64,000 bases of DNA from Clostridia bacterium (GTDB taxonomy: Bacteria > Bacillota > Clostridia > Christensenellales > Borkfalkiaceae): contig JAFXHX010000009.1 in assembly GCA_017536205.1 (NCBI GenBank), positions 1,003 through 65,002 on the forward strand. Reading direction: 5' to 3'. Positions 5,519 through 45,222 of this stretch are shown here, in pieces. The notes beneath the pieces were generated by a model. It did no database searches and was not told the origin of the DNA. It saw only the letters and a list, made by a program, of their open reading frames with translations. The translations under genes and the position numbers were made by a program. Each line of letters starts with the position of its first letter. Position 1 is the stretch's first letter.

Positions 5519-6158
5519 TTTTTTTAAATAGTAAGTTTATTTGCCCCGAAAGTATTTTTCTTTCATAGGCGTTTGGTTGGCGATTTATAAAGTTTAAAAG
5601 GTAAACTTCAAAATCTTCAACTTCTTTAAGTTCTTCTTCATTAAGGTTTTTAGTTTTAAGTTCTTTTAAAAGCCCTTTTAAATGGCTAACGTTAAGCCAA
5701 CCTGAAAGTTCGCCGTTGCCGTTTAAAACACCGTCGGTTGTAAAATAGGTTTCTACTTTACTAGGCGATAACGTTTCGGCTACTTCTAGTGGTTTTCTAG
5801 GCTTTTTCACGGCTTTTTTTCGCTTTATATCGTAAATTAAATAAAGCGCAGTGCTATAAATTACACAAAGTAGTACACAAATTGAAAGGTAGGTGTAAAC
5901 GTGCCACGCACTAACAAATAGTAGCGATTTATTCAAGTAATCGCTTACCGAAAAGTAACTTTGAACTATTAGCAAAACACACGAAAACAAAAAGTTATAA
6001 ACGTGTGATTTTTTTGGCCTTTTAGTTAGCGAAATTATAAGTTCTATTATAAATATAAGCGTTTGCGAAATGGTTAGCGAAATTATAACGTAAGCAGAAA
6101 AATCGCCCTTTAACGCATTTACTAAATAATTTATTACCGTATTAAAAGTTTCAAGCAT
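5499..6158 (-). CDS. membrane protein of unknown function (about 4 TM N-terminal, soluble C-terminal domain)
   Basis: 219 aa. SD AAAGGAG. Overlaps the downstream exonuclease gene by 20 nt. Confidence 0.5.
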   Translation of the reverse strand: MLETFNTVINYLVNALKGDFSAYVIISLTISQTLIFIIELIISLTKRPKKSHVYNFLFSCVLLIVQSYFSVSDYLNKSLLFVSAWHVYTYLSICVLLCVIYSTALYLIYDIKRKKAVKKPRKPLEVAETLSPSKVETYFTTDGVLNGNGELSGWLNVSHLKGLLKELKTKNLNEEELKEVEDFEVYLLNFINRQPNAYERKILSGQINLLFKKIARYTG

Positions 6159-6199
6159 AATAACTCCTTTTACGGAATTATTTACCTATAACTAATATT

Positions 6200-9100: not shown

Positions 9101-9547
9101 TTCAAACGTTTGCTCCATTGCCGTTTGCTTTAAAACGTCGGCACGGAGTTCGTCTATAACTTCAAACTTGCCGTCAAGTTCAGTAAGGTAAAAAAAGCGC
9201 CTTAAAAGTTTTGAGCAAAACGAGTGTATGGTGGAAACGTCTGCCCCTTGAACTAGCGATAACTGCTCCTTTAACCTTTGGTCGCCCGTTAAGGCGTACT
9301 TTTTAGTTAACCTAGTTTTAAGTTTATCTTTCATTTCTTCGGCGGCGGCTTTTGTAAAAGTTACTGCCAAAACGTTTTCAAGCGAAACGCCGTGGTTTTC
9401 AATAAGGTTTAAAATCCTTTCGATAACCACTCGAGTTTTACCCGAACCTGCAGACGCCGAAACGAGCGCGTTGCCGTGAACGTGATTTATAGCCTTTTCC
9501 TGCATAGGAGTAAAGGTTAATTTTTCGTTGTTTGTATTAGTTGGCAT
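6200..9547 (-). CDS. addA: ATP-dependent helicase/nuclease AddA
   Basis: UvrD-type Walker A ASAGSGKT and a C-terminal PD-(D/E)xK-like IDLL...LIDYK. I prefer the ATG at 9547 (MPTNTNNEK) because GGGGAG lies 5 nt upstream and the addB stop is 1 nt away. Confidence 0.9.
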   Translation of the reverse strand: MPTNTNNEKLTFTPMQEKAINHVHGNALVSASAGSGKTRVVIERILNLIENHGVSLENVLAVTFTKAAAEEMKDKLKTRLTKKYALTGDQRLKEQLSLVQGADVSTIHSFCSKLLRRFFYLTELDGKFEVIDELRADVLKQTAMEQTFEELYEQKDQDFFDLVTVFGKKRKDFELRLLVAKLYVFCIEEGGVNVVLEKTLKNYENPNKSLNIMIYESVIGTLKWVKTALENALPLLSEDVKRKEFCAQLITLVKGVISTKSVNDFGAYALIVEPLKAPGGKIINEKASNVLKTSLKTIKTSLINAVEQVTNANSNEDLSGSKDLCVKLLNLTEKFSKTYANLKREENALDFNDLEQFTLELLQNPEVKEEVKNTYKYVFIDEYQDVNNVQEKIMLALQNDNLFMVGDSKQSIYAFRGCNPKHFVNKYYNYLNGAGTPISLDNNFRSAKKIIQTVNAIFSEVMSLDFGGTDYKTSPMIYGERYQGYEGESELHIVQTTKKVKEKLLEDRGVYSVIDSNLRTPSDNRVPEAQLVLNLVRENLGKDYYDPDEKKVKKVGFGDVCILLRGMTNKLASQIVEELTKASVPVSSTVEVKIQDYPEIKLLLNLLSLLVCADRDVPLATVMKTLFKFTPNELAEIRYRVSSGRKSFYECVLSAKNYSDNVGKKVALFLEWLDKKRLIAEFSGVGEVISQIIKETGYYAEIMASPFGSVKIKRIERFLAESVLGDKKFRAHEFEAHIKDTMSNLAISEATDDDTVKVMTMHASKGLEFPVVIVAGANAQFSSKDLSGSVIYSRDYGIAVQSFNVENMTVKENSARMVIKESVRRSTAVEELRLFYVALTRAKYKLIVTGTSNDYNGNVLDYKYDVKNYLGFIPNGAINTYYHTDLELLSSEVNDKETSVAGSDVDSELVSIIKGGLTYVYPHENAVNLPVKRSVSAVRASEDDEHYKTTAIYGDASAEKGTAYHRFLELIDFYSFNLGDKQALLDSGKLTLEQFNAVDENKVKSILSLSIFDKIKGYKLYKERKFFMLVPANELGLSTSTEEVLIQGIIDLLAVKDNEAILIDYKLSTIESDSDLKKKYLTQMELYKMAIEKVLKLKVTTVCILNVLKESEIFV

Positions 9548-9548
9548 A

Positions 9549-10379
9549 TTACTCCCCACCCTTTTCTAGCGCATTTGAAATAGTTTCTACGCTAACGCCG
9601 TCTTCTTTGCGCTCTAACGAGCCGTTTTCTTCTGAAAACCCACACATTGCAGAGTAACTACAATAAGTGCAAGCCCCCTTGTAAGGAGTTGCAGTTATAT
9701 ACCCGCTTCTAATTTCGTCAACGCACTTTTCACACACTTTTACCGAATATTTTAAGTGGTCGTTAAATTGCTTTTCTGTAAGCGTTTGCGACGAGCCGTG
9801 CACTTCACCGTCTTTAGTAAGGGCAACGTTTACGATTTTCGACCTATCTCGTGGTTTTAAATCTCCGTCGGTTGCCATAATTATATCTTTATCGCAAACG
9901 GTTTTTCCACTCATTGCAGGCGAAACACCGTCTAAAGAAAACTCATCTTTAACGGAATAATAATACGCGCCCGAAGGTTTTTTACCGTCGCCCGTAAAGG
10001 CGTTCATATAAAGGTAAAGTTGAAGTTTATTTCCCGTGTAAAGCCCTTCGGTAGAACTGTTTATAGCGCCCGACTTATAGTCTATAATTCTAACGTAATC
10101 GCCGTAATAATCAACCCTATCAACTGCTCCACGAACGCCCACTTCGCCACCTTTGGCGTTGAGTTTTATTGCGGGAATAGTTTTACCGTTACCAAACTCT
10201 TTTTCAAAATAAGTTGGAACGAACTTCGAGCGTTTTTGGTTTACAAACACGTCGAAACACACCCTTTTCGCTTCTTTTACGGTGCGTTTAAGCTCAAACT
10301 CTAAAACGGGGTTTTGCGCGTTGTATTTGTTTTGCTTATCTTCTTTAATAACGCTTTCTATAATTTCTTCAACGAGCAT
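9549..10379 (-). CDS. addB: AddB C-terminal fragment (nuclease / Fe-S domain)
   Basis: RIIDYKSG nuclease motif and the CTYCSYSAMC cysteine triad of the AddB 4Fe-4S cluster. Overlaps the N-terminal fragment in another frame. Confidence 0.8.
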   Translation of the reverse strand: MLVEEIIESVIKEDKQNKYNAQNPVLEFELKRTVKEAKRVCFDVFVNQKRSKFVPTYFEKEFGNGKTIPAIKLNAKGGEVGVRGAVDRVDYYGDYVRIIDYKSGAINSSTEGLYTGNKLQLYLYMNAFTGDGKKPSGAYYYSVKDEFSLDGVSPAMSGKTVCDKDIIMATDGDLKPRDRSKIVNVALTKDGEVHGSSQTLTEKQFNDHLKYSVKVCEKCVDEIRSGYITATPYKGACTYCSYSAMCGFSEENGSLERKEDGVSVETISNALEKGGE

Positions 10380-12766
10380 ATCTGAAGATATTTATCGCTT
10401 ACCCTATCCATATTTTGAACGTAGCGTTCTAACACGGCGTGAAGTAGCGTTCCCGTTTCGTTGGCTTTAACTTCACCCGTTTCCGTTTCGGAAAGTTTAA
10501 GTATTTTTTGCCCGTAACTTTTAAAAGGGCAAGAGAAAAACGTTTCTAACGTGGTTGCGCTAATTTCCCCAGAAGTTGCGCTTTTAACATAGGCTTTATC
10601 AACGTAAACGTCTTTTTCTTCGTCTTGAAAAAGTTCGTTAGTTTTATCAATTAAATCTTTATAGTTAAGCCCTTCAAGCGCTTCGTAAAACGACGCTACT
10701 TTTTTAAGTGCGTTTTTGCTAGAAAGTTTATATTCGGTGTAAGTCGACGCTATTTCACGAAGGGCAGTTTCCCTTGAAGAGTAAGCGCCAAGTTCATACT
10801 TTTTATATTCTTCAAGCCCGTTTTCAATTCCGTCTAAAATAGCCTGCCTAGTTAAAACGTTTAGGTTGAATATTTTAGTAACGGACTTTATAAGTTCCGA
10901 CTTGTAAACGGCGCTTTGCGCGCTATTTACTAGCGAGTACGATAGTTTAAGTTTATCTTCAAAAGAAGTAAGCGCCATTAAAACGCTTTCACGGTCACGG
11001 TCGTTAACCACTTTTATTTTAGGCTCTACTATAACGTTGAAACCGTCTAAAACGGCAAGGTCGCCGTCGGTTAAAAGCGAGGTGTCGCTCTGCGTAAAGG
11101 GAACGTCGCCGTTAAGCGAGAGGGCGTATAAAACCTTTGCGCCTTTAAGTTTAATATCTTTAAGTTCGCCAACGTAAACGGCGTCGTTTAAAATGGGAAT
11201 TGCACCTACTTTGGTTGCGTTAAACCCACTTAAAAGCACGTTTTTAAAATCAAGCGCAGTAATTTTACCGCCACCCAAAACGTTTTCCATCTCGCTTAAA
11301 ACGTCGTTTATTTTAGGCAAAACGTCGTCGTTAAACTCGGCGCTTACAAGTTCGTTTATAGCGCAAAGTTTTTTAGAAAGTTCTTTTACGTTGTTTTCGA
11401 TATTTAGCGTTTTAATAACGTTAGTTATTGCTTTTATATAATCGGTAACCGTTTTGCACTTTGAAAGTTCTTCGCATAGCGCTATTATTTTAGCCCTATA
11501 CCCTTCGTAAACGGAAAGATTTTCACTCTCGAAAGTAAACGGCTTTTTAACGGCGTATTTAGAAACGGCGTTTTTGTATATGTACGAAATAAACCCGTCG
11601 GCAACTTGTTTGTTTGAAATTAAAACGGCGTGCCCTATAATTTTAACGAACTCTTTAACGGGAACGCCCTTTCTTGCCATATCTAAAAACGATATTATAA
11701 ACTGCGACAAGGGGTGCTCTGCAAGCGACGACTGTTTTTCGGCGTAAAAAGGTATGTTGTAATCTTTAAAAGTTCTAGTTAAAAGCGGTAGCGTTTCTGC
11801 AAGCGAGCCAACTGCTAAAACTATATCTTTATACCTATAACCCGAAAGCCTAACTTCTGAAATTATATCTCTTGCAATAAAGTCTATTTCATCGGCGGTA
11901 TCGTATGCGCGATAAAGCGATATTTTGTCGGTAGTAAAAGGCTTAAAATCGCTTTTAAAAACGTCGTGACTAAAAAGGTATTTTTTAAGCGCTTCTTTTT
12001 CAAAATCTAAACGGGGCGAACTTATTATGCTTGCCCCACCGTCAATTTCTAAAAGCCTGTTTAGCGTTTCGCCCGTGTAAACGGAACTGTTTTCGTCGTA
12101 AGGAACAACTGCGTAAACTTCGCTAGCAACTGTGTTTAGCGCTCTAAACACGTCGAACCTTTGGCGTGTTACGGACGGAAAGCCCGATAAAATTATTACT
12201 GCACCTTTAAGATTAGGGTCGCCTATTACCGTTTGTGGCATTAGCGAAAGGTAATCGTTCCTATCGTAAAACCCACTATTTAAAACGTATTCGCAATAGG
12301 TTTTGTAAATTAAATAAACGTCGCAAAGTTTAGAGCGCAAAGCCCCGTCTTTTAAATGCGTTCCTTCTATAAGCCCGAATAAATCGCTAGGGCTTACTTT
12401 TGCGCTTTTAAGTTGCGAAATAAGTTCGTAAAGGGTAAGCGCCATATTAGGACCGAGCGCCGAGCCTTTAAAACAAGAAAGTTCGCTAGTTTTTTCTGCA
12501 AGTATTTTTCTAATAAGCATAACCGAACTTTGCTCGGAAAGTATTTTATCGCTAGGGCTAACTGAATAAACGTAACGCCTAAACGTAAAAACGTCAACGT
12601 CGAAAAAGCCACCGCCAAGCGCCTTTGCAATTTCAAGTTCGAGCGACAAGTTTATTTTGTCTTCTGAAAAAACTACGCACTTTTTTTGGGCGTCACTTAC
12701 TTCTTTAACGAGCGTTGCCGTTTTTTTAATTATAGATTCGCTTGTGGGATGGGTAAAAATCTTCAA
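10358..12766 (-). CDS. addB: AddB N-terminal fragment (helicase-like domain)
   Basis: 802 aa with AddB-like architecture. It contains the first cluster cysteine context FFSCPFKSYG and ends at a TAG 22 nt inside the next ORF. Confidence 0.8.
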   Translation of the reverse strand: MKIFTHPTSESIIKKTATLVKEVSDAQKKCVVFSEDKINLSLELEIAKALGGGFFDVDVFTFRRYVYSVSPSDKILSEQSSVMLIRKILAEKTSELSCFKGSALGPNMALTLYELISQLKSAKVSPSDLFGLIEGTHLKDGALRSKLCDVYLIYKTYCEYVLNSGFYDRNDYLSLMPQTVIGDPNLKGAVIILSGFPSVTRQRFDVFRALNTVASEVYAVVPYDENSSVYTGETLNRLLEIDGGASIISSPRLDFEKEALKKYLFSHDVFKSDFKPFTTDKISLYRAYDTADEIDFIARDIISEVRLSGYRYKDIVLAVGSLAETLPLLTRTFKDYNIPFYAEKQSSLAEHPLSQFIISFLDMARKGVPVKEFVKIIGHAVLISNKQVADGFISYIYKNAVSKYAVKKPFTFESENLSVYEGYRAKIIALCEELSKCKTVTDYIKAITNVIKTLNIENNVKELSKKLCAINELVSAEFNDDVLPKINDVLSEMENVLGGGKITALDFKNVLLSGFNATKVGAIPILNDAVYVGELKDIKLKGAKVLYALSLNGDVPFTQSDTSLLTDGDLAVLDGFNVIVEPKIKVVNDRDRESVLMALTSFEDKLKLSYSLVNSAQSAVYKSELIKSVTKIFNLNVLTRQAILDGIENGLEEYKKYELGAYSSRETALREIASTYTEYKLSSKNALKKVASFYEALEGLNYKDLIDKTNELFQDEEKDVYVDKAYVKSATSGEISATTLETFFSCPFKSYGQKILKLSETETGEVKANETGTLLHAVLERYVQNMDRVSDKYLQICSLKKL

Positions 12767-16963: not shown

Positions 16964-17500
16964 CTACGTAGCGTTTTTTAGTTTTTTGTTGAGTTTATTT
17001 GCAAGCGCAGATGCGCAAATCATTTTAATTATATCAAACGGCAAAAAGGTTATTAAAAGCGTAAGAATAACTTTAAGGTTTAGCCCGCCCGTAGTTACAA
17101 CCGAGCACCACGGCGCGCCTATTAGGTAAATTATAACCGTTCCTACAAAAAAGGCTAGTGCGTAACGCCAAAACCCACTTTTGTTTTTGATAATTAGCCC
17201 CGAAACGAGCGCGCATATAGGGTACGCTAATAAATACCCACCAGTAGGGCCTATTAAAGAGTAAAAACCACCTGAAAAGTTTTGAAAAACGGGAACGCCC
17301 ACTGCGCCTATAAAAAGGTAAACTAAAACGGATACGGTTGCTTGAAAGGGCGTTAACACGGCGCTTGCTAAAAATATTATAAAGGTTGCAAGCGAAACGC
17401 TAACCCCGCTTGGTAAAGGCACTGAAAAAGGCGACACAACGCAAATAAGCGCAGTTAAAATTGCCGTTTTTGCAAGCGCAACTGAAGTTGATTTTTTCAT
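16964..17500 (-). CDS. bioY: biotin transporter BioY
   Basis: 178 aa, 5-6 TM, BioY-like sequence. Overlaps the birA stop by 4 nt. Confidence 0.85.
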   Translation of the reverse strand: MKKSTSVALAKTAILTALICVVSPFSVPLPSGVSVSLATFIIFLASAVLTPFQATVSVLVYLFIGAVGVPVFQNFSGGFYSLIGPTGGYLLAYPICALVSGLIIKNKSGFWRYALAFFVGTVIIYLIGAPWCSVVTTGGLNLKVILTLLITFLPFDIIKMICASALANKLNKKLKNAT

Positions 17501-18234
17501 AATAACGTTAAATCTCCCCCGTGCGCCGTTACTACGCCGGTATCCGTTTTTATTAAAAGTTCGCCTAAACCACCTATATCAATAACCGTGCCTAACGTTA
17601 CGTTATTACCAAAAGTAACCGAAACTTTTTTGTTTATAACAAGCGAATTAGCCTTGTATTCGCTTAAAAAATCAAGCGTTGAAAATGCGCTGTTAAAGTT
17701 TGCAATTCCGTTTAAAAGTAAGGCTATAAGACGGTTAATATCAACTAAAAACCCTTCAAGCGCAAGCGAAGTTGCAATATTAGTTAAGTCGTTTGGAAAG
17801 GTTTTTTGGTTTACGTTTAAGCCTATTCCCACAATTATTTTATCTACCTTGCCGTTTGAAATTGAAGTTTCGGTTAAAATGCCTGCAAGTTTTTTGTTTG
17901 ACACGAAAACGTCGTTAACCCACTTGTATGAATACGGAATATTAAACTCTTTTAAAGCGTTACCTATAACGGTTGCAAAGTAAGGGGTTACGAGTGGAAG
18001 TTTATCAGTAGATATATTCGGCTTTATTACAGCGCTTAAATAAATACCACCTTCACTTGATATAAAGTTACGGTTTTTAGTGCCACGCCCGTTTGTTTGG
18101 CTATTTGCAATAACGGCAAAAATATCGCCGTTACTTTTTATATAGTCCATAGTAGAAGTAACGGTTTTTAAAAGGCAAATATTAAGGGGGCTATTAAGCC
18201 CTTTTTTAATTTGTTCTAAACAAGGCGTTTGCAT
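17497..18234 (-). CDS. birA: biotin--[acetyl-CoA-carboxylase] ligase, group I (no N-terminal HTH)
   Basis: GRGTKNRNFISSEGG biotin-binding loop. At 245 aa it is too short to carry the wHTH repressor domain. Confidence 0.85.
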   Translation of the reverse strand: MQTPCLEQIKKGLNSPLNICLLKTVTSTMDYIKSNGDIFAVIANSQTNGRGTKNRNFISSEGGIYLSAVIKPNISTDKLPLVTPYFATVIGNALKEFNIPYSYKWVNDVFVSNKKLAGILTETSISNGKVDKIIVGIGLNVNQKTFPNDLTNIATSLALEGFLVDINRLIALLLNGIANFNSAFSTLDFLSEYKANSLVINKKVSVTFGNNVTLGTVIDIGGLGELLIKTDTGVVTAHGGDLTLL

Positions 18235-18403: not shown

Positions 18404-18664
18404 GTTATAGCAAGTTGCGACGCAAGCCCGCAGAAACAAGCACAAGCAGGCTCGACAACAAGGGGCACACAACTAACCTTTTTGGTTGTAGAAAGTGGCA
18501 TTTTAAGTCGTTAGAGCCAAGCAAGACAAGGCTCGACGGCAAGGCGTTGGGCGTAATTGACCTTGGTGGTCATTACGGTCACGAATTGACGGCAGTTAAC
18601 GCAGTATTGCGACGGCTATAACGAAATAAAAAGCACCGAAAACGGTGCTTTTTATGTCTTAAAA
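18404..18664 (+). repeat. structured intergenic element E1 (candidate ncRNA or MITE-like element) ending in an intrinsic terminator
   Basis: Positions 18500-18632 match 34693-34826 with 4 mismatches by manual alignment. Hairpins: 18552-18577; terminator GCACCG-aaaa-CGGTGC at 18633-18648 plus a T-run. 8-bp closing pair GTTATAGC (18404) / GCTATAAC (18615). Confidence 0.8.
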
Positions 18665-20041
18665 TTAAAGAAGTATTTTTTCGTTAACGTAACTAATAAC
18701 TTCTTCGACTGACATACGAACTTGTTCCATAGTGTCACGGTCACGAAGGGTTACGGTGCCGTTTTCTAAGGTGTCGAAGTCGATGGTTACACAATAGGGT
18801 GTTCCTATTTCGTCTTGACGGCGATAACGCTTACCGATAGAACCTGCTTCATCGTAAGTAACCATAAAGTATTTAGCAAGTTGTTTGTATATTTCTTTCG
18901 CCTTTTCGCCAAGGTTTTTCTGTAAGGGTAAAACTGCAACTTTATAAGCGGCGATTGCGGGGTGGAAATGCATAACTACTCTGGTATCGCCACCTTCTAA
19001 TTCCTGCTCGTCATACGCTTCGCAAAGGGTTGCAAGCATAAGTCTATCTGCACCGATAGAATATTCGATAACGTAAGGAATATATCTTTCGTTAGTGAAC
19101 GGGTCAAGGTAACCCATTGCTTTGCCAGAATATTCTTGGTGGCGTGAAAGGTCGTAATCGGTACGGTTGTGAATACCGTTAAGTTCAGACCAGCCTATTG
19201 GGAAAAGGTATTGAATATCGCAAGCCGCTTTAGCGTAGTGGGCAAGTTTATCGTGGTCGTGATAACGAAGGTGTTCTTCTTTAAAACCAAGCGCAAGCAA
19301 GAAGTCTTTTGCCGATTTTTTGTAATATTCGTACCACTCACCGTCGGTACCTTCTTTACAGAACCATTGATGTTCCATTTGTTCAAACTCGATAGTTCTA
19401 AAAATGAAGTTACCGGGGGTAATTTCGTTTCTAAACGCCTTACCCACTTGAGCAATACCGAAAGGCACTTTAGCACGGGTGGTGCGTTGAACGTTTAAAA
19501 AGTTAACGAACTCGCCTTGCGCAGTTTCGGGGCGAAGGTATATAACGTTAGTAGACTCGTCGGTTACGCCACGCGAAGTTTGGAACATAAGGTTAAAGTT
19601 ACGAATAGGCGTCCAGTTAAACTTACCGCAGTTAGGGCAAGCAACTTTGTGCTCGTCGATATACGCTTGCATTTCTTCTTGCGTGAGTTTATCGGGGTTA
19701 ACTTTACCCTTGCTGTGGTTTTCAATAAGGTTATCTGCCCTTTGGCGAGTTTTACATTCCTTACAGTCCATTTTAGGGTCGCTAAACGAAGCGGTGTGAC
19801 CAGACGCATCCCAAACGCGAGCGTTCATTAAAATAGCGGCGTCTACACCGAAACTGTTTTCGCTTTCTTGAACGAACTTTTTCCACCAAGCGCGTTTAAT
19901 GTTGTTTTTAACTTCAACGCCAACGGGGCCGTAGTCCCAAGTGTTGCCCATACCGCCGTATATTTCGCTACCGGGGTAGATTATACCGCGAAGTTTGCAA
20001 AGGTTAACGATTTTATCCATAGTAACTGCCTTTTTGTCCAT
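18665..20041 (-). CDS. glyQS: glycine--tRNA ligase (homodimeric class II)
   Basis: 458 aa with a typical GlyRS N-terminus ([20 protein letters not shown]). SD GAGGTG. Promoter TTGACA-17-TAAAAT. Confidence 0.95.
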
Positions 20042-33656: not shown

Positions 33657-34631
33657 CTACTTTGTAAAAAAATTGCTTATTAAAAACCATAAAGCAACAA
33701 GCGCCCCCACCCAACCTATTATAGGATAAACCGTTGAAATTAAGCGTGAAAAACCTATAAAACCTAGCCCGCAAGCACATAAAATCGTTGTAATTTTAGG
33801 CGTTATTTTATTAGTTTTAAGTAGCGCTCCAAGGTGAGAAGAAGCAAGCGAAAAGGCGTTTAAAAGCATAACTATACTTATAAAAATATACAGTGGTAAG
33901 CAAAGCGATTTTATTGCGCACACAAGTGGAAGTTCGGCGTTTAAACACCCTTTAAAACACAATAGCAAAACGGCAACGAGTAGCGATAAAATTAAAAGTA
34001 TTAGCCCCATAGTTATAAGTGAACACGCCTTTTTAAAAGGCGGATTATACGCTTTGTTTTGCTTTTTTAAAACCGATATAGCGCACGCCGAATTAAAGCC
34101 CGCATAAGTGAGTGCCGAAACAAAAACGTTTGGTAAAAACGGGCTTATAGGGTGGTTATTTAAAGTTAAATCTACTTTAAATCCGTTTTTATAAAACGCT
34201 AAAAACGCACAAAATAAAAGCCCTATAAGTAACACGGGAAGTGAAAGTTTTAAAGTTTTAGTTACTGCACTTAACGGCTTAAACGAGTAAAGTAAAATTA
34301 AAATTGAAAAAATAGCCGAGCAAACGTTTTTATTAAAGCCCGTTATATAACTTAACAGTTCGCCAGAGCCCGATATTGTTACGCTTATAATTAAAAAGGA
34401 AAGCGTTTTTTCTAGAATTGAAAGTGAAAAGTTTGTCGTTTTATTTTTAGTTTGAAAACGGGTTATTATAGCGCCACTAAACAAAACGGTTAAAGTGCAG
34501 TTTAAAACTAGCCCCCACACCCAACCTTTATAAGATAAGAAAAAAAGGGCGGTTTCTTTGCCGGACAAAAACCCCACCCCAACAAAAACGAACGCCGTTA
34601 AAAATGCTAAACGTAAAACCCCACTTTGCAT
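33657..34631 (-). CDS. YkvI-like polytopic membrane protein
   Basis: 324 aa, about 10 TM. N-terminal GVGFLSGKETALFF resembles the YkvI family motif. Confidence 0.5.
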   Translation of the reverse strand: MQSGVLRLAFLTAFVFVGVGFLSGKETALFFLSYKGWVWGLVLNCTLTVLFSGAIITRFQTKNKTTNFSLSILEKTLSFLIISVTISGSGELLSYITGFNKNVCSAIFSILILLYSFKPLSAVTKTLKLSLPVLLIGLLFCAFLAFYKNGFKVDLTLNNHPISPFLPNVFVSALTYAGFNSACAISVLKKQNKAYNPPFKKACSLITMGLILLILSLLVAVLLLCFKGCLNAELPLVCAIKSLCLPLYIFISIVMLLNAFSLASSHLGALLKTNKITPKITTILCACGLGFIGFSRLISTVYPIIGWVGALVALWFLISNFFTK

Positions 34632-34688
34632 ATAAAACTATATGCCCACGCATTAACTATTATTCTACCCCATCCACGCCGTATTAAC

Positions 34689-34864
34689 TGATATTTTAAG
34701 CCGTTAGAGCCGAGCAAGACAAGGCTCGACGGCAAGGCGTTGGGCGTAATTGACCTTTTTGGTCATTACGGTCACGAATTGACGGCAGTTAACGCAGTAT
34801 TGCGACGGCTATAACGAAATAAAAAAGCGTGGCATCTAGCCACGCTTTTTTGTGTCTTAAAACT
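34689..34864 (+). repeat. structured intergenic element E2 with its own terminator
   Basis: Near-identical to the E1 core. Its terminator has a completely different stem (GCGTGGC-atcta-GCCACGC, 34827-34845) at the same relative position. Confidence 0.8.
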
Positions 34865-34867
34865 TTT

Positions 34868-35150
34868 AAGCCCGTAGAAACAAGTTAGGCGAGGCTCGCA
34901 ATTTTTGTTAGTTGTAGAAAGTGATATTTTAAGACGTTAGAAGCGAGCGAGAGAAGGCTCGCAATTTTTGTTGGTTGTAGAAAGTGATATTTTAAGACGT
35001 TAGAAGCGAGCGAGAGAAGGCTCGCGAAAAGGTACGGACACGATTGACCTTTGTGGTCATCGGGGTCGTAACTTTGAAGCAGAAACGCACTATCGCGACG
35101 CTTATAACGAAATAAAAGCACCGAAAACGGTGCTTTTATTGTACTTAAAA
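34868..35150 (+). repeat. structured intergenic element E3 (diverged paralogue of E1/E2) with terminator
   Basis: Shares the 5' AAGCCCGYAGAAACAAG with E1, the GTTGTAGAAAGTG..ATTTTAAG module, hairpins with altered but still paired stems, and the terminator GCACCG-aaaa-CGGTGC (35118-35133). Confidence 0.8.
34893..35018 (+). repeat. 63-nt tandem duplication (2 units, 1 mismatch) inside E3
   Basis: GGCTCGCAATTTTTGTT(A/G)GTTGTAGAAAGTGATATTTTAAGACGTTAGAAGCGAGCGAGAGAA occurs twice, followed by a third GGCTCGC at 35019. Confidence 0.9.
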
Positions 35151-36665
35151 TTAGAGGATTTCCAAGTTCTTTTTAAATATACGCCTGAAATCTGGTTGAG
35201 AAGAAAGCGCGTCTTTAATTTCTAAAGTTGCATCGCTGGATAAAACGGTTTTCATAATAACGGAATCACCCAAAACGTCACAACTTAAACTTTCAACGCT
35301 ACTGCTCATAGACCTATCAAGGCTAACGGCTATGCGAAGCATAATGCCGAGTTTTCTTATAAGATCAACGTCTTCTTCACTGATGAACTCTTTATATTTA
35401 ATAAGGTCTGCCATAGAAAAATCGTCGTTTTTATAATTTGATACGACAAGCGCGGCAAGAACTATTTCACGTTGACTAATTCCGTATAAACTAGAGTTTA
35501 AAATAAGGTAACTAGTGTGCTTTTGATAATCGTAATACTTAATACTAGTTCCCGCATCGTGAAGATACGCAGCAACCTTTAATATTTTAAGGGCTTGGCG
35601 TGGGAACTTGTGAAGAACGTGCATTTGCTTAAAAAGTTGAACTGAAAGGTTAACTACTTGTTCGCAGTGCTTTTCGTTACACTTGTAATATTTTACTAGC
35701 GTTTGAAGGCTGTAAGTTAAAACGTCGCTAATAGGTTTTTCAACCGTCATAGGAACGGCGTAGTTAAACATAATGCCTTCACGCAAGCCACAAGCCGATA
35801 TAGTCATTTTTTCAAAGCCGAGATATTTTATAAATGCGTGAGCAACTGCAAACGCAGAAGGTAAAAGGTCGGCACGCTTTGACGAAATGCCCTTTATGCG
35901 CTTTTTCTTATCAAGGTCGAGCGATTTAAGCATTTCGTAAACGGAAACAAACTCTTCAGTTTCGACAACGTAGTTATGAATAAGCGGAAGTTGACACTTC
36001 TTTTTCATTTTAACTATTTTGCAAAGGTTTCTAAAACTACCACCACAACCTATAAGTTGAGTTTCGGGGTCGATTTCTTTAAGCCACTCTATTTGAGATA
36101 ATTGTTCGGTTATAAACTCTTCTATCTTTTTAGCCTGTTCTTCGCCCGAAAGATTATCGCTTGCAAAAAGTTCGGTAAGGGTTACCGCGCCGAACGGAAG
36201 CGTTTCAAAGTGAAGAAGATTGCGCCTATTGTAGTAAATAACCTTGGTTGAGCCACCACCTATTTCTATAATGAGCCCCTTAGAAACGTCCATAGTGTTT
36301 ATAACGCCACGATAAACGTAAGTTGCTTCTTCTTCGGCGGTTAATACTTTAAGTTTAATACCCGTTGTTGCAACTATTTCGTCAAGGAAACTGCGTTGAT
36401 TTTTCGCACGGCGAACTGCCGCAGTTGCTACGGCTATAATTCTTTCTATTTCGTAAGCATCGCAAAGTTTTCTAAACATTTTAAGGGTTTTAATAGTCTC
36501 TGCCACGCGTGAAGGTTGCAAAAACCCGTCCCTTTCCATATCTTGACCTAAGCGAACGCTTTCTTTTAACTGGTCTATAACGACAAAGTGCCCGTCGCCT
36601 AACATTTCGACGATGACGAGCCTTGCGGTATTAGAACCTAAATCGATAATTCCTATTCTTTCCAC
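35151..36665 (-). CDS. Ppx/GppA family exopolyphosphatase / pppGpp phosphohydrolase with HD domain
   Basis: IIDLGSNTARLV and GGGS motifs, C-terminal HD region (YLHDAG). GTG start with a GAGG SD. Confidence 0.88.
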   Translation of the reverse strand: MERIGIIDLGSNTARLVIVEMLGDGHFVVIDQLKESVRLGQDMERDGFLQPSRVAETIKTLKMFRKLCDAYEIERIIAVATAAVRRAKNQRSFLDEIVATTGIKLKVLTAEEEATYVYRGVINTMDVSKGLIIEIGGGSTKVIYYNRRNLLHFETLPFGAVTLTELFASDNLSGEEQAKKIEEFITEQLSQIEWLKEIDPETQLIGCGGSFRNLCKIVKMKKKCQLPLIHNYVVETEEFVSVYEMLKSLDLDKKKRIKGISSKRADLLPSAFAVAHAFIKYLGFEKMTISACGLREGIMFNYAVPMTVEKPISDVLTYSLQTLVKYYKCNEKHCEQVVNLSVQLFKQMHVLHKFPRQALKILKVAAYLHDAGTSIKYYDYQKHTSYLILNSSLYGISQREIVLAALVVSNYKNDDFSMADLIKYKEFISEEDVDLIRKLGIMLRIAVSLDRSMSSSVESLSCDVLGDSVIMKTVLSSDATLEIKDALSSQPDFRRIFKKNLEIL

Positions 36666-36804: not shown

Positions 36805-37194
36805 TTATGCGCTATATTTTTTAAGTTTTTTGGCTATGGTTGGAGATAAAAATTGAACTACCGAGAGCGCAACTAAAAACACGCCGAACGCACGCTTTAA
36901 AACGCCTGCGTTTATTATTGAAGATAGCACCGAGCCACCTATTGCAAATAAAACGGCGGGAACTATAACGAAAAGTATTCCTTTTAGGTTTACTAGTTTG
37001 TTTTTAAAGTGAAGTATTAAAGAGACTATTGCCATAGGCAAAAACGATATTAAGTTTAGCCCCTGCGCACCGAGTTGCGAAACGGATAAAAATATAGTTA
37101 GAACGGGAATTAAAATAGTTCCGCCACCCATACCCATGCCACCAAGCACGCCAGACAGTGCGCTTGCAATAAAAAACCAAACGTAATTAAGCAT
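36805..37194 (-). CDS. TauE/SafE (TSUP) family half-size membrane protein, second half
   Basis: 129 aa, 4 TM. Gly-rich GGMGMGGG motif at the start of TM1. Confidence 0.7.
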   Translation of the reverse strand: MLNYVWFFIASALSGVLGGMGMGGGTILIPVLTIFLSVSQLGAQGLNLISFLPMAIVSLILHFKNKLVNLKGILFVIVPAVLFAIGGSVLSSIINAGVLKRAFGVFLVALSVVQFLSPTIAKKLKKYSA

Positions 37195-37205: not shown

Positions 37206-37574
37206 TTAGCCTATTATCATTTTAACGCCCGCAACGAGCATAACTACCGCAAATATTTTTGCAAGTGCGCTGGGCTTTATTTTTTTAAGAAGTAGCGCGC
37301 CGACAACACCGCCGACCGTTACCCCAACGGCAACCACTATTAGCGTTATAATTTCCACGTTAAACGAGCCACTTATAAAGTAGGTTACAACGCTAACTGC
37401 AGTTACGGGCAAAATAACGGCTATAGCCGTTGCGTGCGAAACTTTTTCGTTAAATCCTAAAATTAAAGTGAGCATAGGAACTACAATCATTCCACCGCCA
37501 CCACCGAAAAATCCGTTTACAAAACCCGTGACCGAGCCTATTAAAATAAGTAAAGCAATTTTCTTTTTGGACAT
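37206..37574 (-). CDS. TauE/SafE (TSUP) family half-size membrane protein, first half
   Basis: 122 aa from the ATG at 37574 (MSKKKIALL). 4 TM. GFFGGGGG motif. TACAAT -10 lies 6 nt upstream of the ATG. Confidence 0.7.
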   Translation of the reverse strand: MSKKKIALLILIGSVTGFVNGFFGGGGGMIVVPMLTLILGFNEKVSHATAIAVILPVTAVSVVTYFISGSFNVEIITLIVVAVGVTVGGVVGALLLKKIKPSALAKIFAVVMLVAGVKMIIG

Positions 37575-37803
37575 ACTTATATTGTAGTCAGTTTTTAAAA
37601 AATATTGCACCTTCCAGCCTTGAAAAGCAAAAAATTAAGTTCAATTTGCGAAAACGGCGTGTAATTTTGGCGATTTTGCTCTACAAAATTAAAAAATAGG
37701 GCTTGAAGTATTGATTTTTTGAAAAAAATGCTTTATACTTATTTAGAATAAATAAACAAAGTGGGCGCGCGTATATGCTCGCGATTATAAATACGAGGGA
37801 CTT

Positions 37804-40800
37804 ATGTACTTAAAAACACAATTCAAACTCAAAAGATTTTTAATAGCAATGCTCGCAATGATGATGGCAATTATGCTTGCATTTTCGGTTGCGTGTAAAG
37901 CCGACAATGACGACGGTGGCGACGACGATGACGACGATTCTTCAACGACCACCACTATTACCGACTATCAATCGATTAAAAACGGTGACTTTGAGTTTTC
38001 TACGGATGAAAAAACCACTTATCCGTACTGGGCTTCGATTAACTGGTCGAAAAGCGTTGATACCGACGCTACTAACGCACCCGCATCTTCAGGCACTTCT
38101 GGTATAATCGACACTAGTAGCGACGTTTATTCGAAGTTAAGTTCAAAAAACAAACCTACCGATAGCGCAACGGGTAACATTATTAACCCTAGAACGCCTT
38201 ACTATTACGGTTTAGTTGCTAACGAATACGATTACGATGATGAAGACAAGCGTGCTAACGCTCAAACCGCAGGTACTAAAGTTTTAATGATTAACAACAA
38301 GCACCGCGATATAAACGGGCTTGGTACTGCGCAAAAGTTTAAAAGTTCTTCAACCTTAACCGTTTCGGAAGGCAGTTACGCAGTTTTATCGTTTTGGGTA
38401 AACACTATAAACCTTAAAACTCTTAACTCAACCAAAACCCCCGGCGCATACGCTTTATTAACTAGTTCGATAGGTTCTGAAGCGTATAACAAGTTTACGC
38501 TTGACGGAATTAACACAAACGGCGAATGGGCAAAGTTCTCTTTCTATATCGAAGGTTCTGAACTCGGTGCAGTTTCACTCTCGCTTACTTTCGGTCTTGG
38601 TCGTGGTAACGGAACCGACACTAACGACTTCGTTGAAGGTTTTGCATACTTTGATAACGTTACTTTAAAAACCATTACCAAAGCAGAGTACCTTGCAAAC
38701 GTTTCAACCGAATACGATTGCGAATCTATTCCCGAATACGTAAACGCCCCCACTTCTTACGCAGATAACGGCGCAGAGAAAAATTACGCCGACGCTAACG
38801 CTTCGTTATACACTAGCACCGATTACAAGTTCAATTACGCTACTTTAGGCGACGGTGTTACTCAAGTTAACGGCACTATTAGTTACAACGAAACCGACCC
38901 CGGTTACGATTACTCTACTTCAAACTTTACTAAAGTTGGCGCACTCAGCGAGTTTACCAACGATGAAAAAGCAAAGTTTAACGGCGCGTTTGATAATATT
39001 GCAAGCGACATAGCAAACAACCCCTCGCTTATTGCTTTCCACTTTGCAAGACAATCTACTGCAAGTTTTGTATCTGACGTATTATCGATTGAAGGCGATA
39101 AATACGACTATATTACCTTCTTTGCAAAAGTAAATGCAAACAACTCAAAATCAGAAGGCCTTAAAGTTGAATTAGTTGACATTCTTAGTTCCGATACCGA
39201 TAAAGACGTTTCGGCGTTTGCATCTATTACGGCAACCGAAGAACAAGAAAACGGCAGATACGGTGACTGGATTAAGTATAAAATTATAGTTAACAACCCC
39301 ACAGACAAACTTGCTAAATACCAAATTAAAATTACTTTCGGTTACGACGGCGAGTGGAACGACAGTTACGCACTCCAAACGGGTTACGCAGTAGTTGCAA
39401 ACCTTTCAATTACTAGTGAAGTTAACGAAAAGTATTATAGCCTAGCAACTGCAAGTTCAACGGTTTCTAAAACTCAAATATACGGCGTGTACACGTCTTA
39501 TAGCGATATTACGGAAGCCGAAACGGGTAACGACGTTTACAACCTTGCAGTTGATAAAGCGCAAACCTTTGCTATTCAAAACAGGCCCGCAACCAACATT
39601 ACCGGTTACACCTTTAAAGCAACGGATAAATCTAGCGTAGTTCACGGTTTAATAAACAGTAAATACGTTTCTGGTAGCGTTTACGGTGACGGCTCAACCA
39701 CCATTACTAACGTTAACGAAATTACTTCGCTTAACGAAGGCGACAATACCTACGCTCAAGTAATGGTGCTTGATAACAAAGTTAAAACTCAATCGCGCTA
39801 TATTTCAAACAGCAACTACGTTCCCTTAAACGAAATTACTAAAGTTACAGTTAAGGTAAGAGCAACCGGCAACGCCGTAGCAAACGTTTATTTAGTAACT
39901 TCGGTTGTTGGTGAAAATAACGATTACGAAGTTCTTAACTTTAAGCCTGATGATAACTTTAACCAAAAAATGCAAGCAACCGTAACTAGCAGTTCTCACA
40001 CCATAGACGGTTGGACTAACGTTGTGTTCTACGTTGTGGCAGGTAACAAAGATATTCACTTTAGAGTTGAAATTAGAAACGGCGACCGTGATAGCCAAGA
40101 AGGCTCTATCGGTGCAATTTACTCAACTGGCGTTATTTATAACAGAGTTGACGCTTCTAAGTACGCTTCTGATAAAAACGCTTATAAGAAAGACTTTGAA
40201 AACTTATATCAAGGCAACCCCGACAAAGTGGAATATATGTTTACTAATTACGATGAATATAGAAGAGTTCCCCTTGTAACCAAGAGCCTTGACGAAGATG
40301 GAAACGAAGTAACCGAAACTACCTACTTCGAACCTACCGAAGTTTACTTAGGTAACGCGCTCGTTAAGTTCTTCGACTATTCGACTATCGACGTTGAAAC
40401 CGAAGTTGACAACACTTCTAGTAGCGACGATACTACTACCGACACGGAAGACGAAGAAGAAACTTACGAAGTTAACCCAAGCGCAGCACTTCAAATTACT
40501 TCAATAGTAATTGCAATTATTTTAATTGTAGTAATGGCAGTTGTTGTAATTAGAAATATTCTTAAAAAGCGTGCTAAAAAACTTCAAAAAACTCAAGCGT
40601 ACTACGAAGTTGTTTCCGGCTTTGATAGAGATGCAAGACAAAAAGCGTTTGATAAAATTGCTAGTAAGAAACGCAAAATAGCACTTGCTGAAAAGGATGA
40701 AGTTGAATACGACTACGACGAAAGCCAACAAATTGAAGAAGCAGTAGTTGAAGACGTTGAAGAAGCCGAAGAAACTGAAAACGCTAGCGAAGAAATTATT

Positions 40801-40866
40801 ATTGACGAAGTGGTTAACGAAGAAACCGAAGAAACTCAAACTAACGAACCCACTAGCGAAGAATAA
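37804..40866 (+). CDS. large surface protein: lipobox + poly-Asp/Ser/Thr linker + repeated beta-sandwich (CBM-like) regions + C-terminal TM + acidic tail
   Basis: Lipobox FSVAC (Cys31), DDGGDDDDDDSSTTTT linker, NGDFEF motif, TM ITSIVIAIILIVVMAVVVI near the C-terminus, Glu-rich tail. Promoter TTGATT-17-TATACT upstream. Confidence 0.6.
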   Translation: MYLKTQFKLKRFLIAMLAMMMAIMLAFSVACKADNDDGGDDDDDDSSTTTTITDYQSIKNGDFEFSTDEKTTYPYWASINWSKSVDTDATNAPASSGTSGIIDTSSDVYSKLSSKNKPTDSATGNIINPRTPYYYGLVANEYDYDDEDKRANAQTAGTKVLMINNKHRDINGLGTAQKFKSSSTLTVSEGSYAVLSFWVNTINLKTLNSTKTPGAYALLTSSIGSEAYNKFTLDGINTNGEWAKFSFYIEGSELGAVSLSLTFGLGRGNGTDTNDFVEGFAYFDNVTLKTITKAEYLANVSTEYDCESIPEYVNAPTSYADNGAEKNYADANASLYTSTDYKFNYATLGDGVTQVNGTISYNETDPGYDYSTSNFTKVGALSEFTNDEKAKFNGAFDNIASDIANNPSLIAFHFARQSTASFVSDVLSIEGDKYDYITFFAKVNANNSKSEGLKVELVDILSSDTDKDVSAFASITATEEQENGRYGDWIKYKIIVNNPTDKLAKYQIKITFGYDGEWNDSYALQTGYAVVANLSITSEVNEKYYSLATASSTVSKTQIYGVYTSYSDITEAETGNDVYNLAVDKAQTFAIQNRPATNITGYTFKATDKSSVVHGLINSKYVSGSVYGDGSTTITNVNEITSLNEGDNTYAQVMVLDNKVKTQSRYISNSNYVPLNEITKVTVKVRATGNAVANVYLVTSVVGENNDYEVLNFKPDDNFNQKMQATVTSSSHTIDGWTNVVFYVVAGNKDIHFRVEIRNGDRDSQEGSIGAIYSTGVIYNRVDASKYASDKNAYKKDFENLYQGNPDKVEYMFTNYDEYRRVPLVTKSLDEDGNEVTETTYFEPTEVYLGNALVKFFDYSTIDVETEVDNTSSSDDTTTDTEDEEETYEVNPSAALQITSIVIAIILIVVMAVVVIRNILKKRAKKLQKTQAYYEVVSGFDRDARQKAFDKIASKKRKIALAEKDEVEYDYDESQQIEEAVVEDVEEAEETENASEEIIIDEVVNEETEETQTNEPTSEE

Positions 40867-43566: not shown

Positions 43567-43842
43567 AAATAAAACCTATGAGAAAGAGTAAGTAGAAATC
43601 GTGCGTTTTTGCAAAGAGAGCCACCGTTTGGTGTAAGTGTGGCGTAAAACCCGTTTTTGAATGGACTTTCGAGGGCGAACGGAACGGCTTTAAGCCAAGT
43701 ATGTAAGACGGAGTGTGGCTCTCTAGTAAACAAAGGTCTGCGTATGTAGTACGCAAAAAAGTGGGCGCAAAATGCGCCAAAACGGGTGGCACCACGGTTA
43801 ACAATCGTCCCGAAAAGCGTAAGCGCTTTTCGGGTTTTTTAT
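43567..43842 (+). promoter_or_regulatory. T-box riboswitch leader, Trp specifier (UGG)
   Basis: AGAGA/AGTA stem I elements. Specifier context GAATGGA (TGG at 43662-43664). T-box sequence AAACGGGTGGCACCACGG (43779-43797). Terminator CCCGAAAAGCG/CGCTTTTCGGG plus T6 (43809-43840). Confidence 0.85.
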
Positions 43843-43854
43843 TTAGGAGATAGT

Positions 43855-45222
43855 ATGCAAAAAGAAATACCTTACAAGATTTATCTTGAAGAAAACGAAA
43901 TGCCAAAAAGTTGGATGAACTTAAGGGCTTATATGAAAGAAAAGCCTGCACCCCTTCTTAACGCGCAGACTTTACAGCCCATGACTGAAGATGAACTTTC
44001 AAAAGTTTTTTGCCGTGAACTTGTAAAACAAGAACTCGACGATACTTCAAAGTTTATTCTTATTCCAGAAGAAGTTCAAGACTTTTATAAAATGTATCGC
44101 CCTGCACCCCTCGTTAGGGCTTATTGCTTAGAAAAGGCGTTAGGAACTCCCGCTAAAATATACTATAAGTTTGAAGGCAACAACACGTCTGGCTCGCACA
44201 AACTCAATTCGGCAATAGCGCAAGCGTATTACGCCAAAGAACAAGGCTTAAAAGGCGTTACCACCGAAACGGGCGCAGGTCAATGGGGAACTGCTCTTTC
44301 TATGGCTTGCTCGTACTTTGGGCTTGACTGCAAGGTGTTTATGGTTAAATGTTCTTACGAGCAAAAACCGTTTAGGCGTGAAGTTATGCGTACTTATGGT
44401 GCAAACGTAACCCCCTCACCTTCAACTTTAACCGAAGTTGGCAAAAAAATACTTGCCGAGCACCCCGGCACTAACGGCAGTTTAGGTTGTGCTATTAGCG
44501 AGGCAGTTGAAACTGCAGGCAAACTTGATGGTTACCGTTACGTTTTAGGTAGCGTTTTAAACCAAGTTTTACTTCACCAGTCTGTTATAGGTTTAGAAAC
44601 CAAAACGGCAATGGATAAGTACGGCATTAAGCCCGACGTTATTATAGGTTGCGCAGGTGGCGGTAGTAACCTTGGCGGTTTAATTACCCCGTTTATGGCA
44701 GAAAAACTTCAAGGTAAAGAAGATTACGAGTTTATTGCAGTTGAACCCGTATCTTGCCCGTCGCTTACTCGTGGCGCTTACGCATACGACTATTGCGACA
44801 CAGGCGCCGTTTGCCCCCTTTCTAAAATGAAAACGCTTGGCAGTAACTATATTCCCGCAGCAAGCCACGCAGGTGGATTAAGGTACCACGGTATGACTTC
44901 AACGCTTTCTGAACTTTACGATAAAGGCTATATGAAGGCAGTTTCGGTAAAACAAACTGAAGTATTTAAAGCGGCAGAACAGTTTGCAAGGGTTGAGGGA
45001 ACGCTCCCTGCGCCCGAATCTGCACACGCTATAAAAGTTGCAATAGACGAAGCGCTTAAATGCAAAGAAACGGGCGAAGAAAAAACCATACTTTTCGGGC
45101 TTACGGGCACGGGCTACTTTGATATGTACGCATACCAGCGTTATCACGACGGGGAAATGACAGATTATATTCCTAGTGACGAAGAAATTGAATTAGCGCT
45201 TAAAAAATTACCAAAAGTGTAA
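43855..45222 (+). CDS. TrpB2-type tryptophan synthase beta-like PLP enzyme
   Basis: GSHKLNSA PLP-lysine motif and about 455 aa, typical of TrpB2. The ATG at 43855 has a GGAGA SD. The track start at 43786 would overlap the T-box terminator. Confidence 0.85.
   Translation: MQKEIPYKIYLEENEMPKSWMNLRAYMKEKPAPLLNAQTLQPMTEDELSKVFCRELVKQELDDTSKFILIPEEVQDFYKMYRPAPLVRAYCLEKALGTPAKIYYKFEGNNTSGSHKLNSAIAQAYYAKEQGLKGVTTETGAGQWGTALSMACSYFGLDCKVFMVKCSYEQKPFRREVMRTYGANVTPSPSTLTEVGKKILAEHPGTNGSLGCAISEAVETAGKLDGYRYVLGSVLNQVLLHQSVIGLETKTAMDKYGIKPDVIIGCAGGGSNLGGLITPFMAEKLQGKEDYEFIAVEPVSCPSLTRGAYAYDYCDTGAVCPLSKMKTLGSNYIPAASHAGGLRYHGMTSTLSELYDKGYMKAVSVKQTEVFKAAEQFARVEGTLPAPESAHAIKVAIDEALKCKETGEEKTILFGLTGTGYFDMYAYQRYHDGEMTDYIPSDEEIELALKKLPKV

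Follow-up and report, generated by a model that had tools for sequence, protein, structure and literature searches.

E1, E2 and E3, three units in a 64,000-nucleotide stretch of a Clostridia bacterium assembly (GCA_017536205.1, contig JAFXHX010000009.1, positions 1,003 to 65,002; hereafter the window), are copies of a previously undescribed dispersed family of hairpin-forming repeats from uncultured gut Clostridia. E2 (34694-34862) and E3 (34864-35150) are related, lie on the plus strand and fill most of the 519-bp gap between the stop codon of ppx (35151-35153; gene at 35151-36665, minus strand, Ppx-GppA family) and the start, at 34631, of the next minus-strand gene (33657-34631, 324 aa). The original prediction, made from the letters of the window, described this pair, its common orientation and its shared segments correctly; the label 'ykvI-like' that it gave to the 324-aa gene is unverified, since this gene has no Pfam or NCBIfam match. 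The third unit, E1 (18432-18664), is located between glyQS (GlyRS open reading frame (ORF) 18665-20041, minus strand) and birA (17497-18234). A search of the 64 kb with the family profile (nhmmer) yielded exactly three full copies (Table 1) and three partial modules (18432-18495, 34864-34906 and 34927-34974), all six on the plus strand. The segment ATTTTAAGnCGTTAGA occurs exactly at 18500, 34693, 34926 and 34989, with 5 matches at up to 2 mismatches against 0.76 expected, and TATAACGAAATAAAA occurs exactly at 18617, 34810 and 35103. E1 combines the body of E2 with the terminator of E3. A 63-nt tandem duplication had been predicted in E3 and is found at 34892-35025 (2.1 copies, 98% identity by TRF). 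E2 and E3 fold with z-scores of -6.2 to -8.2, as RNA or DNA and on either strand, and none of 200 shuffled sequences folded as well.

The canonical unit is about 130 nt long and forms one long imperfect hairpin. Its order is TTTTAAGnCGTTAGAAAC, AAG, V1 (7 nt), AAGGCTCG, a variable hairpin with a GACC TTTTT GGTC tip, CAGTAACG, V2 (7 nt) and CGCCGTTTATAACGGnTTAAAA, of which the ends (TTTTAAGnCGTTAGAAAC and GTTTATAACGnnTTAAAA), AAGGCTCG, the GACC-loop-GGTC tip and CAGTAACG are conserved. The ends form an 18-nt inverted repeat, with TTTTAAGnCGTTA(G/T)AAAC at both ends and one mismatch, and the conserved foot of the hairpin, TTAGAAAC/GTTTATAA, contains a G.A mismatch. Although the sequences of V1 and V2 change from copy to copy, the two remain complementary (GTTAGGC/GCCTAAC, GTATTTC/GAAATAC, GCACAAG/CTTGTGC), and the next helix inward from the ends co-varies in the same manner (AAAC/GTTT, TTGC/GCAA, TTAC/GTAA, AAGC/GCTT). 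Among 78 aligned copies, 97.4% of the pair cells hold standard pairs, compared with 87.4% after shuffling, and double changes occupy 233 cells compared with 66; registers slid by 1-3 columns are just 20-47% paired. When diverged subfamilies are added by covariance model, 26 of 31 pairs co-vary, the outermost stem included, in an alignment that is biased towards the structure to which it was fitted. As this covariation indicates, the foot, the two unpaired boxes and the tip are the conserved parts, and the rest changes freely provided that pairing is kept. Selection on the secondary structure of the repeat, which had been proposed from E2 and E3, is supported by covariation both in the 78 copies and in the diverged subfamilies. 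The local hairpin proposed at the same time, GAGCC..GGCTC in E2 and GCGAGC..GCTCGC in E3, is not a feature of the family: GGCTCG is invariant and mostly unpaired in the 78 copies, and it is the variable 7-mer preceding it that pairs, with a 7-mer about 80 nt downstream.

In most copies the unit is preceded on its 5' side by a conserved, non-palindromic tail (..AACTCAAAGyyTATTCAAyGCTCTTA), about 25-30 nt long and outside the 18-nt inverted repeat, which renders the unit asymmetric. One to four half-modules, each consisting of a 5' arm and a tail, often stand upstream of a full copy; 5' halves (47) far outnumber 3' halves (4). About 15% of the copies, including all three in the window, carry in addition a bidirectional terminator hairpin (the T hairpin), which is G+C-rich, preceded by an A-run and followed by a T-run, and lies about 10 nt from the gene-proximal end, before a second CTTAAAA. 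Its stem varies from copy to copy between conserved flanks, and the stems of E2 and E3 are unrelated, as had been noted before. The T hairpin is part of the unit and not of the host gene, since E2 possesses one while lying away from any stop codon. Units of this T form fold as a Y, in which the outer stem TTTTAAG/CTTAAAA closes two hairpins, the terminator and the long one. In a scan for intrinsic terminators the T hairpins of E1 and E2 pass, and that of E3 fits by sequence. The 130-nt body is not itself a terminator, its stem being followed by TTA../TAAGAG.. and not by a T-run, and the approximately 85% of family members without a T hairpin run directly into the antisense of a gene. A consensus scan revealed no promoter-like site upstream of E1 or E2 on the element strand. 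An outward match of the form TTGnnn-18-TAAAAT in E1 and E2 was rejected as a family feature; its -35 box falls in the variable V1 stem.

The units stand exactly at the ends of genes. The position of the stop codon of convergent ORFs (≥ 60 codons) was measured relative to the element 3' end in 82 copies with canonical ends. The stop follows the element immediately in 21 copies and after 1 nt in 12, and in 15 it is the TAA within the element's own TTTTAA. In nine further copies it lies at a distance of 36-39 nt, the internal terminator being all that intervenes, in three it is reached 16 nt inside the element, and in three it follows at 3, 11 or 18 nt. No such ORF is present for 19 copies, 13 of which are followed by another copy. 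In the window, E1 and E3 both show CTTAAAA joined directly to the TTA of the stop codon (18658-18667 and 35144-35153). Abutment on stop codons also holds in the diverged subfamilies. The adjoining stops are TAA (40), TAG (2) and TGA (1), against a background of 79% TAA. The orientation is uniform within each contig (18 of 18 contigs with several sites), and no locus has a copy in reverse orientation, so that a properly abutting element is found at none of 132 same-strand genes compared with 71 of 359 opposite-strand genes. GC skew on the element strand is negative at 72 of 76 loci (mean -0.061) and throughout the window. The leading strand of Firmicutes is G-rich; the negative skew therefore places the elements behind genes that run with replication, with the element plus strand as the leading-strand template. 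Exact stop abutment, single orientation with respect to replication and the long-range pairing that closes the unit are the decisive features missed by the original prediction.

Table 1. Positions of the repeat units and their parts in the window
Feature	Position	Strand	Evidence
E1 upstream truncated module (5' arm and part of apical hairpin)	18432-18495	+	nhmmer profile positions 13-78, E = 1.4e-5
E1 body, full hairpin-repeat copy	18501-18631	+	nhmmer positions 1-129, E = 8e-30; covariance model 123 bits
E1 terminator hairpin, stem GCACCG/CGGTGC, between an A-run and a T-run, usable in both directions	18626-18655	.	terminator scan
E1 gene-proximal closing heptamer CTTAAAA, abuts GlyRS stop (18665-18667, minus)	18658-18664	+	sequence
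Possible outward promoter in E1, same site as in E2	18500-18529	-	consensus scan
E2 distal tail remnant CGTATTAACTGATA before TTTTAAG	34680-34693	+	resembles tail ..AAAGyyTAtTcAAyGcTcTTA preceding most copies; weak here
Possible outward promoter TTGTCT-18-TAAAAT at E2 distal end, facing 324-aa gene	34693-34722	-	consensus scan only, 9/12 matches
E2 body, full copy	34694-34824	+	nhmmer E = 1.9e-30; covariance model 124.5 bits
E2 terminator hairpin, stem GCGTGGC/GCCACGC	34821-34851	.	terminator scan; inverted repeat
E2 closing heptamer CTTAAAA, pairs with TTTTAAG 34694-34700	34856-34862	+	folds
E3 half-module 1 (5' arm and tail)	34864-34926	+	nhmmer positions 1-43; direct repeat
E3 half-module 2, 63-nt tandem with start of E3 body	34927-34989	+	nhmmer positions 1-49; TRF period 63
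E3 body, full copy	34990-35117	+	nhmmer E = 1.4e-29; covariance model 129.7 bits
E3 terminator hairpin, stem GCACCG/CGGTGC as in E1	35111-35140	.	inverted repeat, 13-nt arms, 100% complementary; fold
E3 closing heptamer CTTAAAA, abuts ppx stop (35151-35153, minus)	35144-35150	+	sequence

The extent of the family was assessed by a scan for the pattern TTTTAAGNCGTTAGAN{10,40}GGCTCG in genomes chosen one per species. Of 99 stretches returned, 94 belong to 13 species-level metagenome-assembled genomes (MAGs) labelled Christensenellaceae or Clostridia, many of them from yak, sheep and goat gut. These 13 MAGs hold 118 full copies and 47 half-modules over 107 sites (contigs and loci are cited below by L numbers). 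Diverged subfamilies with the same core and different ends are present at about 20 metagenome loci, recovered by a core-pattern scan that was unspecific (only about 20 of the 120 loci returned are genuine). Many contigs end within a repeat copy, several from the window's own species among them: L003, L004, L114 and L115 end inside E3 or E2, at 58 nt beyond ppx or 111 nt short of the downstream gene, so the repeats break short-read assemblies. That the repeats form a multi-copy family of no recognized kind, as had been supposed, agrees with the copy number and with the database searches. No Rfam 15 family matches the repeat at gathering threshold, the window-wide scan giving only a T-box and a tRNA elsewhere, and permissive thresholds at the repeat positions give only weak, terminator-driven look-alikes. 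Nothing similar was detected by BLAST in plasmids and phages or by scanning viral contigs, and a full-text literature search with the repeat end sequences gave no match.

Several variants were observed beside the canonical form. A diverged subfamily with ends TTTTAAAGGGATAGAAAC (L104:3872-4136 and L105:3872-4000) occupies the glyQS end of an 89%-identical relative and begins within the gene's own ACT TTT TAA. In two otherwise typical units (L066:2777-2903 and L070:7290-7419) the TTTTAAG/CTTAAAA ends are swapped for complementary AAGAAAC../..GTTTCTT. A second type of repeat, situated distal to some elements, consists of about 10 arrayed mini-hairpins with 4-9 bp stems of differing sequence and the spacer (A)GATATATTTT; such arrays occur at L032 (approximately 6050-6500, where they form a large palindrome), at L014 (approximately 4040-4150) and in L027, L042, L043, L083 and L088, and are absent from the window. 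A 702-aa protein (P0002) scores nearly as high as the 458-aa GlyRS; it may have arisen by read-through or fusion across a gene-end element, or may reflect faulty gene calling.

Comparison of orthologous gene ends points to insertion. At the end of glyQS the window has E1, whereas L106 (89% identical protein) is empty, reading CTT TAA and then AATCAAGG, with a terminator and birA behind it; in more distant relatives this position is taken by ordinary terminators. The ppx end is empty in L058 and filled in the window and in L079. The obg-yhbY spacer measures 18 nt when empty (L011, L039) and is filled in L041 and L059. Further orthologous sites are empty in L005 and L015 and filled in L012, or empty in L102 and filled in L025; besides glyQS and ppx, the pattern is seen at obg, FTHFS and three further genes. 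At the empty sites, TAA is followed by AA in 7 of 8 cases, compared with 28% of TAA stops generally (binomial estimate approximately 8e-4). The same site in different species carries different sub-variants, and successive copies stack at one stop codon. One orthologous site holds a full X with Y and Z halves in L062 and a full Y with an X half in L064, next to the same distal flank, the order of the stack being opposite in the two. Where a gene natively ends in TTT TAA, the element's TTTTAA may be duplicated (L014) or merged with it (L076, L028). A solitary end is present directly after a stop codon at L059:207-235 (..AAC GAT TTA TAA CGGCTTAAAA and tail), where the ortholog has full copies in L025 and is empty in L102; this may be a footprint of excision or deletion.

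[quoted passage not shown] A structure-specific enzyme encoded elsewhere in the genome would recognize the folded single strand and position the element, in a strand-specific manner, next to a stop codon with an A-run behind it. Candidates for such an enzyme are a HUH/Y1-type protein, a RAYT-like protein or another hairpin-recognizing recombinase. The newest copy in a stack would adjoin the gene, older ones having been pushed away and cut back to the distal arm. In the ppx gap, E2 would have arrived first, and E3 with the two half-modules later at the same stop codon, displacing E2 downstream. The T form may substitute for the terminator of the host gene: the ppx and glyQS transcripts would end at the first hairpin of the element, and transcription arriving from the other side would be halted short of the gene.

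A number of observations weigh against mobility of this type. No transposase, RAYT-like or integrase gene was observed beside any copy at the 107 sites or in the annotated 46 kb of the window, the ORFs of which are of the housekeeping kind. An all-versus-all comparison of 724 locus ORFs revealed no repeated ORF, only orthologous housekeeping blocks, and a crude screen of the locus ORFs for HUH..Y motifs was empty. In the loci, which amount to about 700 kb, and in the window, neither full-length insertion sequences with the same ends nor inverted-repeat pairs or orphan ends enclosing an ORF were detected. Target-site duplication is not consistent: a TTAA or TAA duplication fits some sites, fails at L025 versus L102 and leaves the distal tail unexplained, and the flanks of single insertions (e.g., L100) share no direct repeat. 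The conserved non-palindromic distal tail also means that the inverted repeat is not strictly terminal. Within the window's species, no filled/empty polymorphism was observed; contigs with an identical ppx or downstream protein have the same arrangement or break inside the repeat, and an 'E2-only' junction is absent from the metagenomes. The precision at stop codons, with an occasional TAG or TGA, is hard to explain through recognition of DNA sequence alone.

The two strands of the element are not equivalent. The plus strand folds approximately 5.6 kcal/mol better than its complement, the gene-sense strand, in 72 of 78 copies, and its single mismatches are of the purine-purine type. G.T wobbles outnumber A.C mismatches on the element strand by 101:11 in the close set; for the diverse set the ratio is 96:20, or 43:15 without one wobble-rich helix. 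These counts are not independent events, and the asymmetry is treated as a lead and not as a result. As such it favours a functional plus-strand fold, either as RNA or as single-stranded DNA. It also counts against the mobile-repeat reading: the wobble-bearing strand is the leading-strand template, unlike the lagging-strand template used by known single-strand transposons, and the asymmetry hints at an RNA or other role for the element strand.

Two RNA roles may be considered. In the first, the repeats would be host-selected cis-acting elements of the 3' untranslated region, transcribed with the upstream gene and able to modulate how translation terminates, how the mRNA decays or how the next gene is expressed, a role compatible with a mobile origin. 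Exact stop abutment in diverse subfamilies, tolerance of insertions within operons (the obg-yhbY spacer) and the persistence of the core boxes in subfamilies with different termini agree with it. The hairpin would start 0-1 nt past the stop, so a terminating ribosome would have to melt the closing stem, and Liang, Rudd and Deutscher reportedly found in 2015 that translation is reduced by REP elements lying no more than about 15 nt from a stop codon. However, the wobble statistics favour the opposite strand, the gene-sense strand is the one that folds worse, and in the window copies the terminator precedes the body, so that most gene transcripts would omit the latter. In addition, the flanking genes share no common functional theme, and related species lack the element at the same genes; this role is rated unlikely. 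Somewhat less likely again is a set of small RNA genes on the element plus strand, each giving a structured RNA of about 170 nt that ends at the T hairpin before the neighbour's stop codon. It would account for the better folding and the wobble pairs of this strand, for the T-run of the T form at a plus-strand 3' end and for conserved unpaired boxes with variable stems, which are typical of protein-bound RNAs. Nevertheless, the free-standing small RNA gene suggested by the original prediction is not borne out: the element strand lacks a promoter-like site upstream of E1 and E2, the conserved 5' tail differs among subfamilies and has no -10/-35 pattern, the only promoter-like match in the unit would start downstream of the 5' arm that the co-varying stems need, no Rfam family matches, and the copies without a terminator would read antisense into an essential gene.

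The repeats could also be sites for structure-specific recombination or single-strand initiation, analogous to attC or to plasmid single-strand origins, which a host or mobile recombinase or primase would use without their being mobile themselves. Consistent with such a function are the attC-like palindrome, which is imperfect, 120-135 nt long, conserved in its basal boxes, bulged, and variable at the top, and the location directly behind ORF stops in a single orientation, the better-folding strand being antisense to the ORF and on the leading-strand template. It is nonetheless rated highly improbable, since the polarity of the core boxes is reversed (5'-GTTAG..TATAAC-3' compared with 5'-RYYYAAC..GTTRRRY-3'), the neighbours are scattered housekeeping genes (glyQS, obg, ppx, FTHFS) and not cassette arrays, the annotated part of the window shows no integrase, and essential genes would be lost if direct copies, about 30 kb apart, recombined. 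Small protein-coding genes are effectively excluded. E1 does contain a 68-aa ORF (18415-18621, plus strand), yet it has no family match, stops interrupt its frame in E2 and E3 (read by eye), the copies differ by indels whose lengths are no multiples of three, and a substitution on one side of a stem is matched on the other; the earlier statement that no reading frame is conserved across the copies holds.

Christensenellaceae-like Clostridia are abundant in the gut and known almost only from fragmented metagenome bins, and these repeats are part of the reason why their assemblies break. The family provides a natural data set on hairpin targeting within one base of a stop codon, on restriction to one replication strand, on the diversification of stems with pairing kept and on a mobile repeat that supplies terminators to housekeeping genes. 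It is a tentative and rather doubtful suggestion that the family is the sign of an insertion or recombination system, so far undescribed, that acts structure- and strand-specifically and recognizes gene ends, or else a class of gene-end-anchored antisense RNA. A system of this kind would put a folded strand, DNA or RNA, exactly at the stops of genes codirectional with replication, by an enzyme type new to such targeting; to our knowledge, neither REP/RAYT nor integron systems are known in the host phylum. The mobilizing enzyme, once found, could add a new structure-guided insertion activity, and the repeats, if expressed, would constitute a large new class of structured RNA.

Other features of the window were recorded in passing. 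An AddB-like nuclease is encoded by two overlapping minus-strand ORFs (9549-10379, 276 aa, PD-(D/E)XK; 10358-12766, 802 aa, ADDB_N) adjoining an AddA-like helicase (6200-9559); the split may come from a frameshift or faulty assembly, or the gene may be a pseudogene. The T-box leader (43569-43815, plus strand; 94.4 bits, barely over the gathering score) stands directly 5' of a gene for a TrpB-like pyridoxal-phosphate enzyme (43786-45222) and not of one for an aminoacyl-tRNA synthetase. A TauE/SafE exporter is represented by two adjoining half-size minus-strand genes (36805-37194 and 37206-37610; 129 and 134 aa), which match the N- and C-terminal halves of the profile and are arranged identically in L001 and L002. 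A 1020-aa ORF (37804-40866, plus strand) without Pfam or NCBIfam match is kept at the same place in contigs L001-L004.

Among known systems, the REP/BIME/REPIN elements, mobilized by RAYT (an IS200-like Y1 HUH protein) and found mainly in Proteobacteria, share most with the repeat: both are extragenic, high-copy imperfect palindromes forming single-strand hairpins, with conserved bases at the foot of the stem, compensated variable stems, clustered mosaic arrays and a location at gene 3' ends. REP elements have an orientation bias relative to replication, as does the repeat (18/18 contigs, 72/76 loci). The repeat differs in lacking sequence similarity and a GTAG head (its foot is TTAGAAAC/GTTTATAA), in consisting of one 130-nt hairpin with an asymmetric tail instead of a doublet of 35-nt REPs, and in its exact stop abutment and uncultured Clostridia host; no RAYT gene was found at the loci, and no locus has copies on both strands. 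In integron attC sites, a palindrome of kept structure and variable sequence likewise lies right after the ORF stop in one orientation, with the active strand antisense, whereas the repeat reads 5'-GTTAGAA ... TTATAAC-3' on either strand and has neither a detectable integrase nor cassette arrays at its loci. Palindrome-associated elements derived from IS200/IS605 are also strand-specific, produce no target duplication, insert at T/A-rich motifs and need folded ends. Their left and right subterminal hairpins are separate and their active strand is on the lagging-strand template; in the repeat the two ends pair together and no tnpA or tnpB is nearby, and the strand data cut against a simple analogy. 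As for guide RNAs (the omega RNA of TnpB/IscB, tracrRNA), a guide or scaffold identity had been offered as one possibility and is not supported: no tnpB, iscB, cas (including cas9), reverse transcriptase or repeated ORF lies at the 107 sites, and an Rfam match is absent.

The terminator-carrying MITE was the closest of the three identities first proposed. Terminal inverted repeats, small size, lack of coding capacity, multiple copies and presence or absence at orthologous sites are those of a classical MITE, which derives from an insertion sequence with a DDE transposase; consistent flanking target-site duplications are missing, and a terminator is present in only about 15% of the copies. Correia elements (CREE, Neisseria) and enterobacterial ERIC are about 100-150 bp long, have inverted repeats, are co-transcribed with their neighbours and can bring in promoters or terminators or serve as targets of RNases, ERIC often being at gene 3' ends (PMC10969869). 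Pneumococcal BOX is modular (A-Bn-C), SPRITE has a terminator-like end, and BOX, RUP and SPRITE elements nest into one another (PMC10969869). Correia elements duplicate a TA target and occur in both orientations, mostly upstream of genes, whereas the repeat shows no such duplication, a single orientation and stems that vary among copies. BOX, RUP and SPRITE resemble the repeat in being intergenic in a Firmicute, and BOX also in being modular, comparable to arrays of several half-modules and one full copy; the sequences of BOX, RUP and SPRITE are unrelated to it, and no stop-codon abutment or replication-strand rule is reported for them. RUP is tied to IS630-Spn1 and a TA target. The repeat lacks defining features of MITE, REP/REPIN and attC alike and is accordingly placed beside the named families and not within them; its closest known kinds are the REP/REPIN elements together with MITEs, for example Correia, ERIC, BOX and SPRITE.

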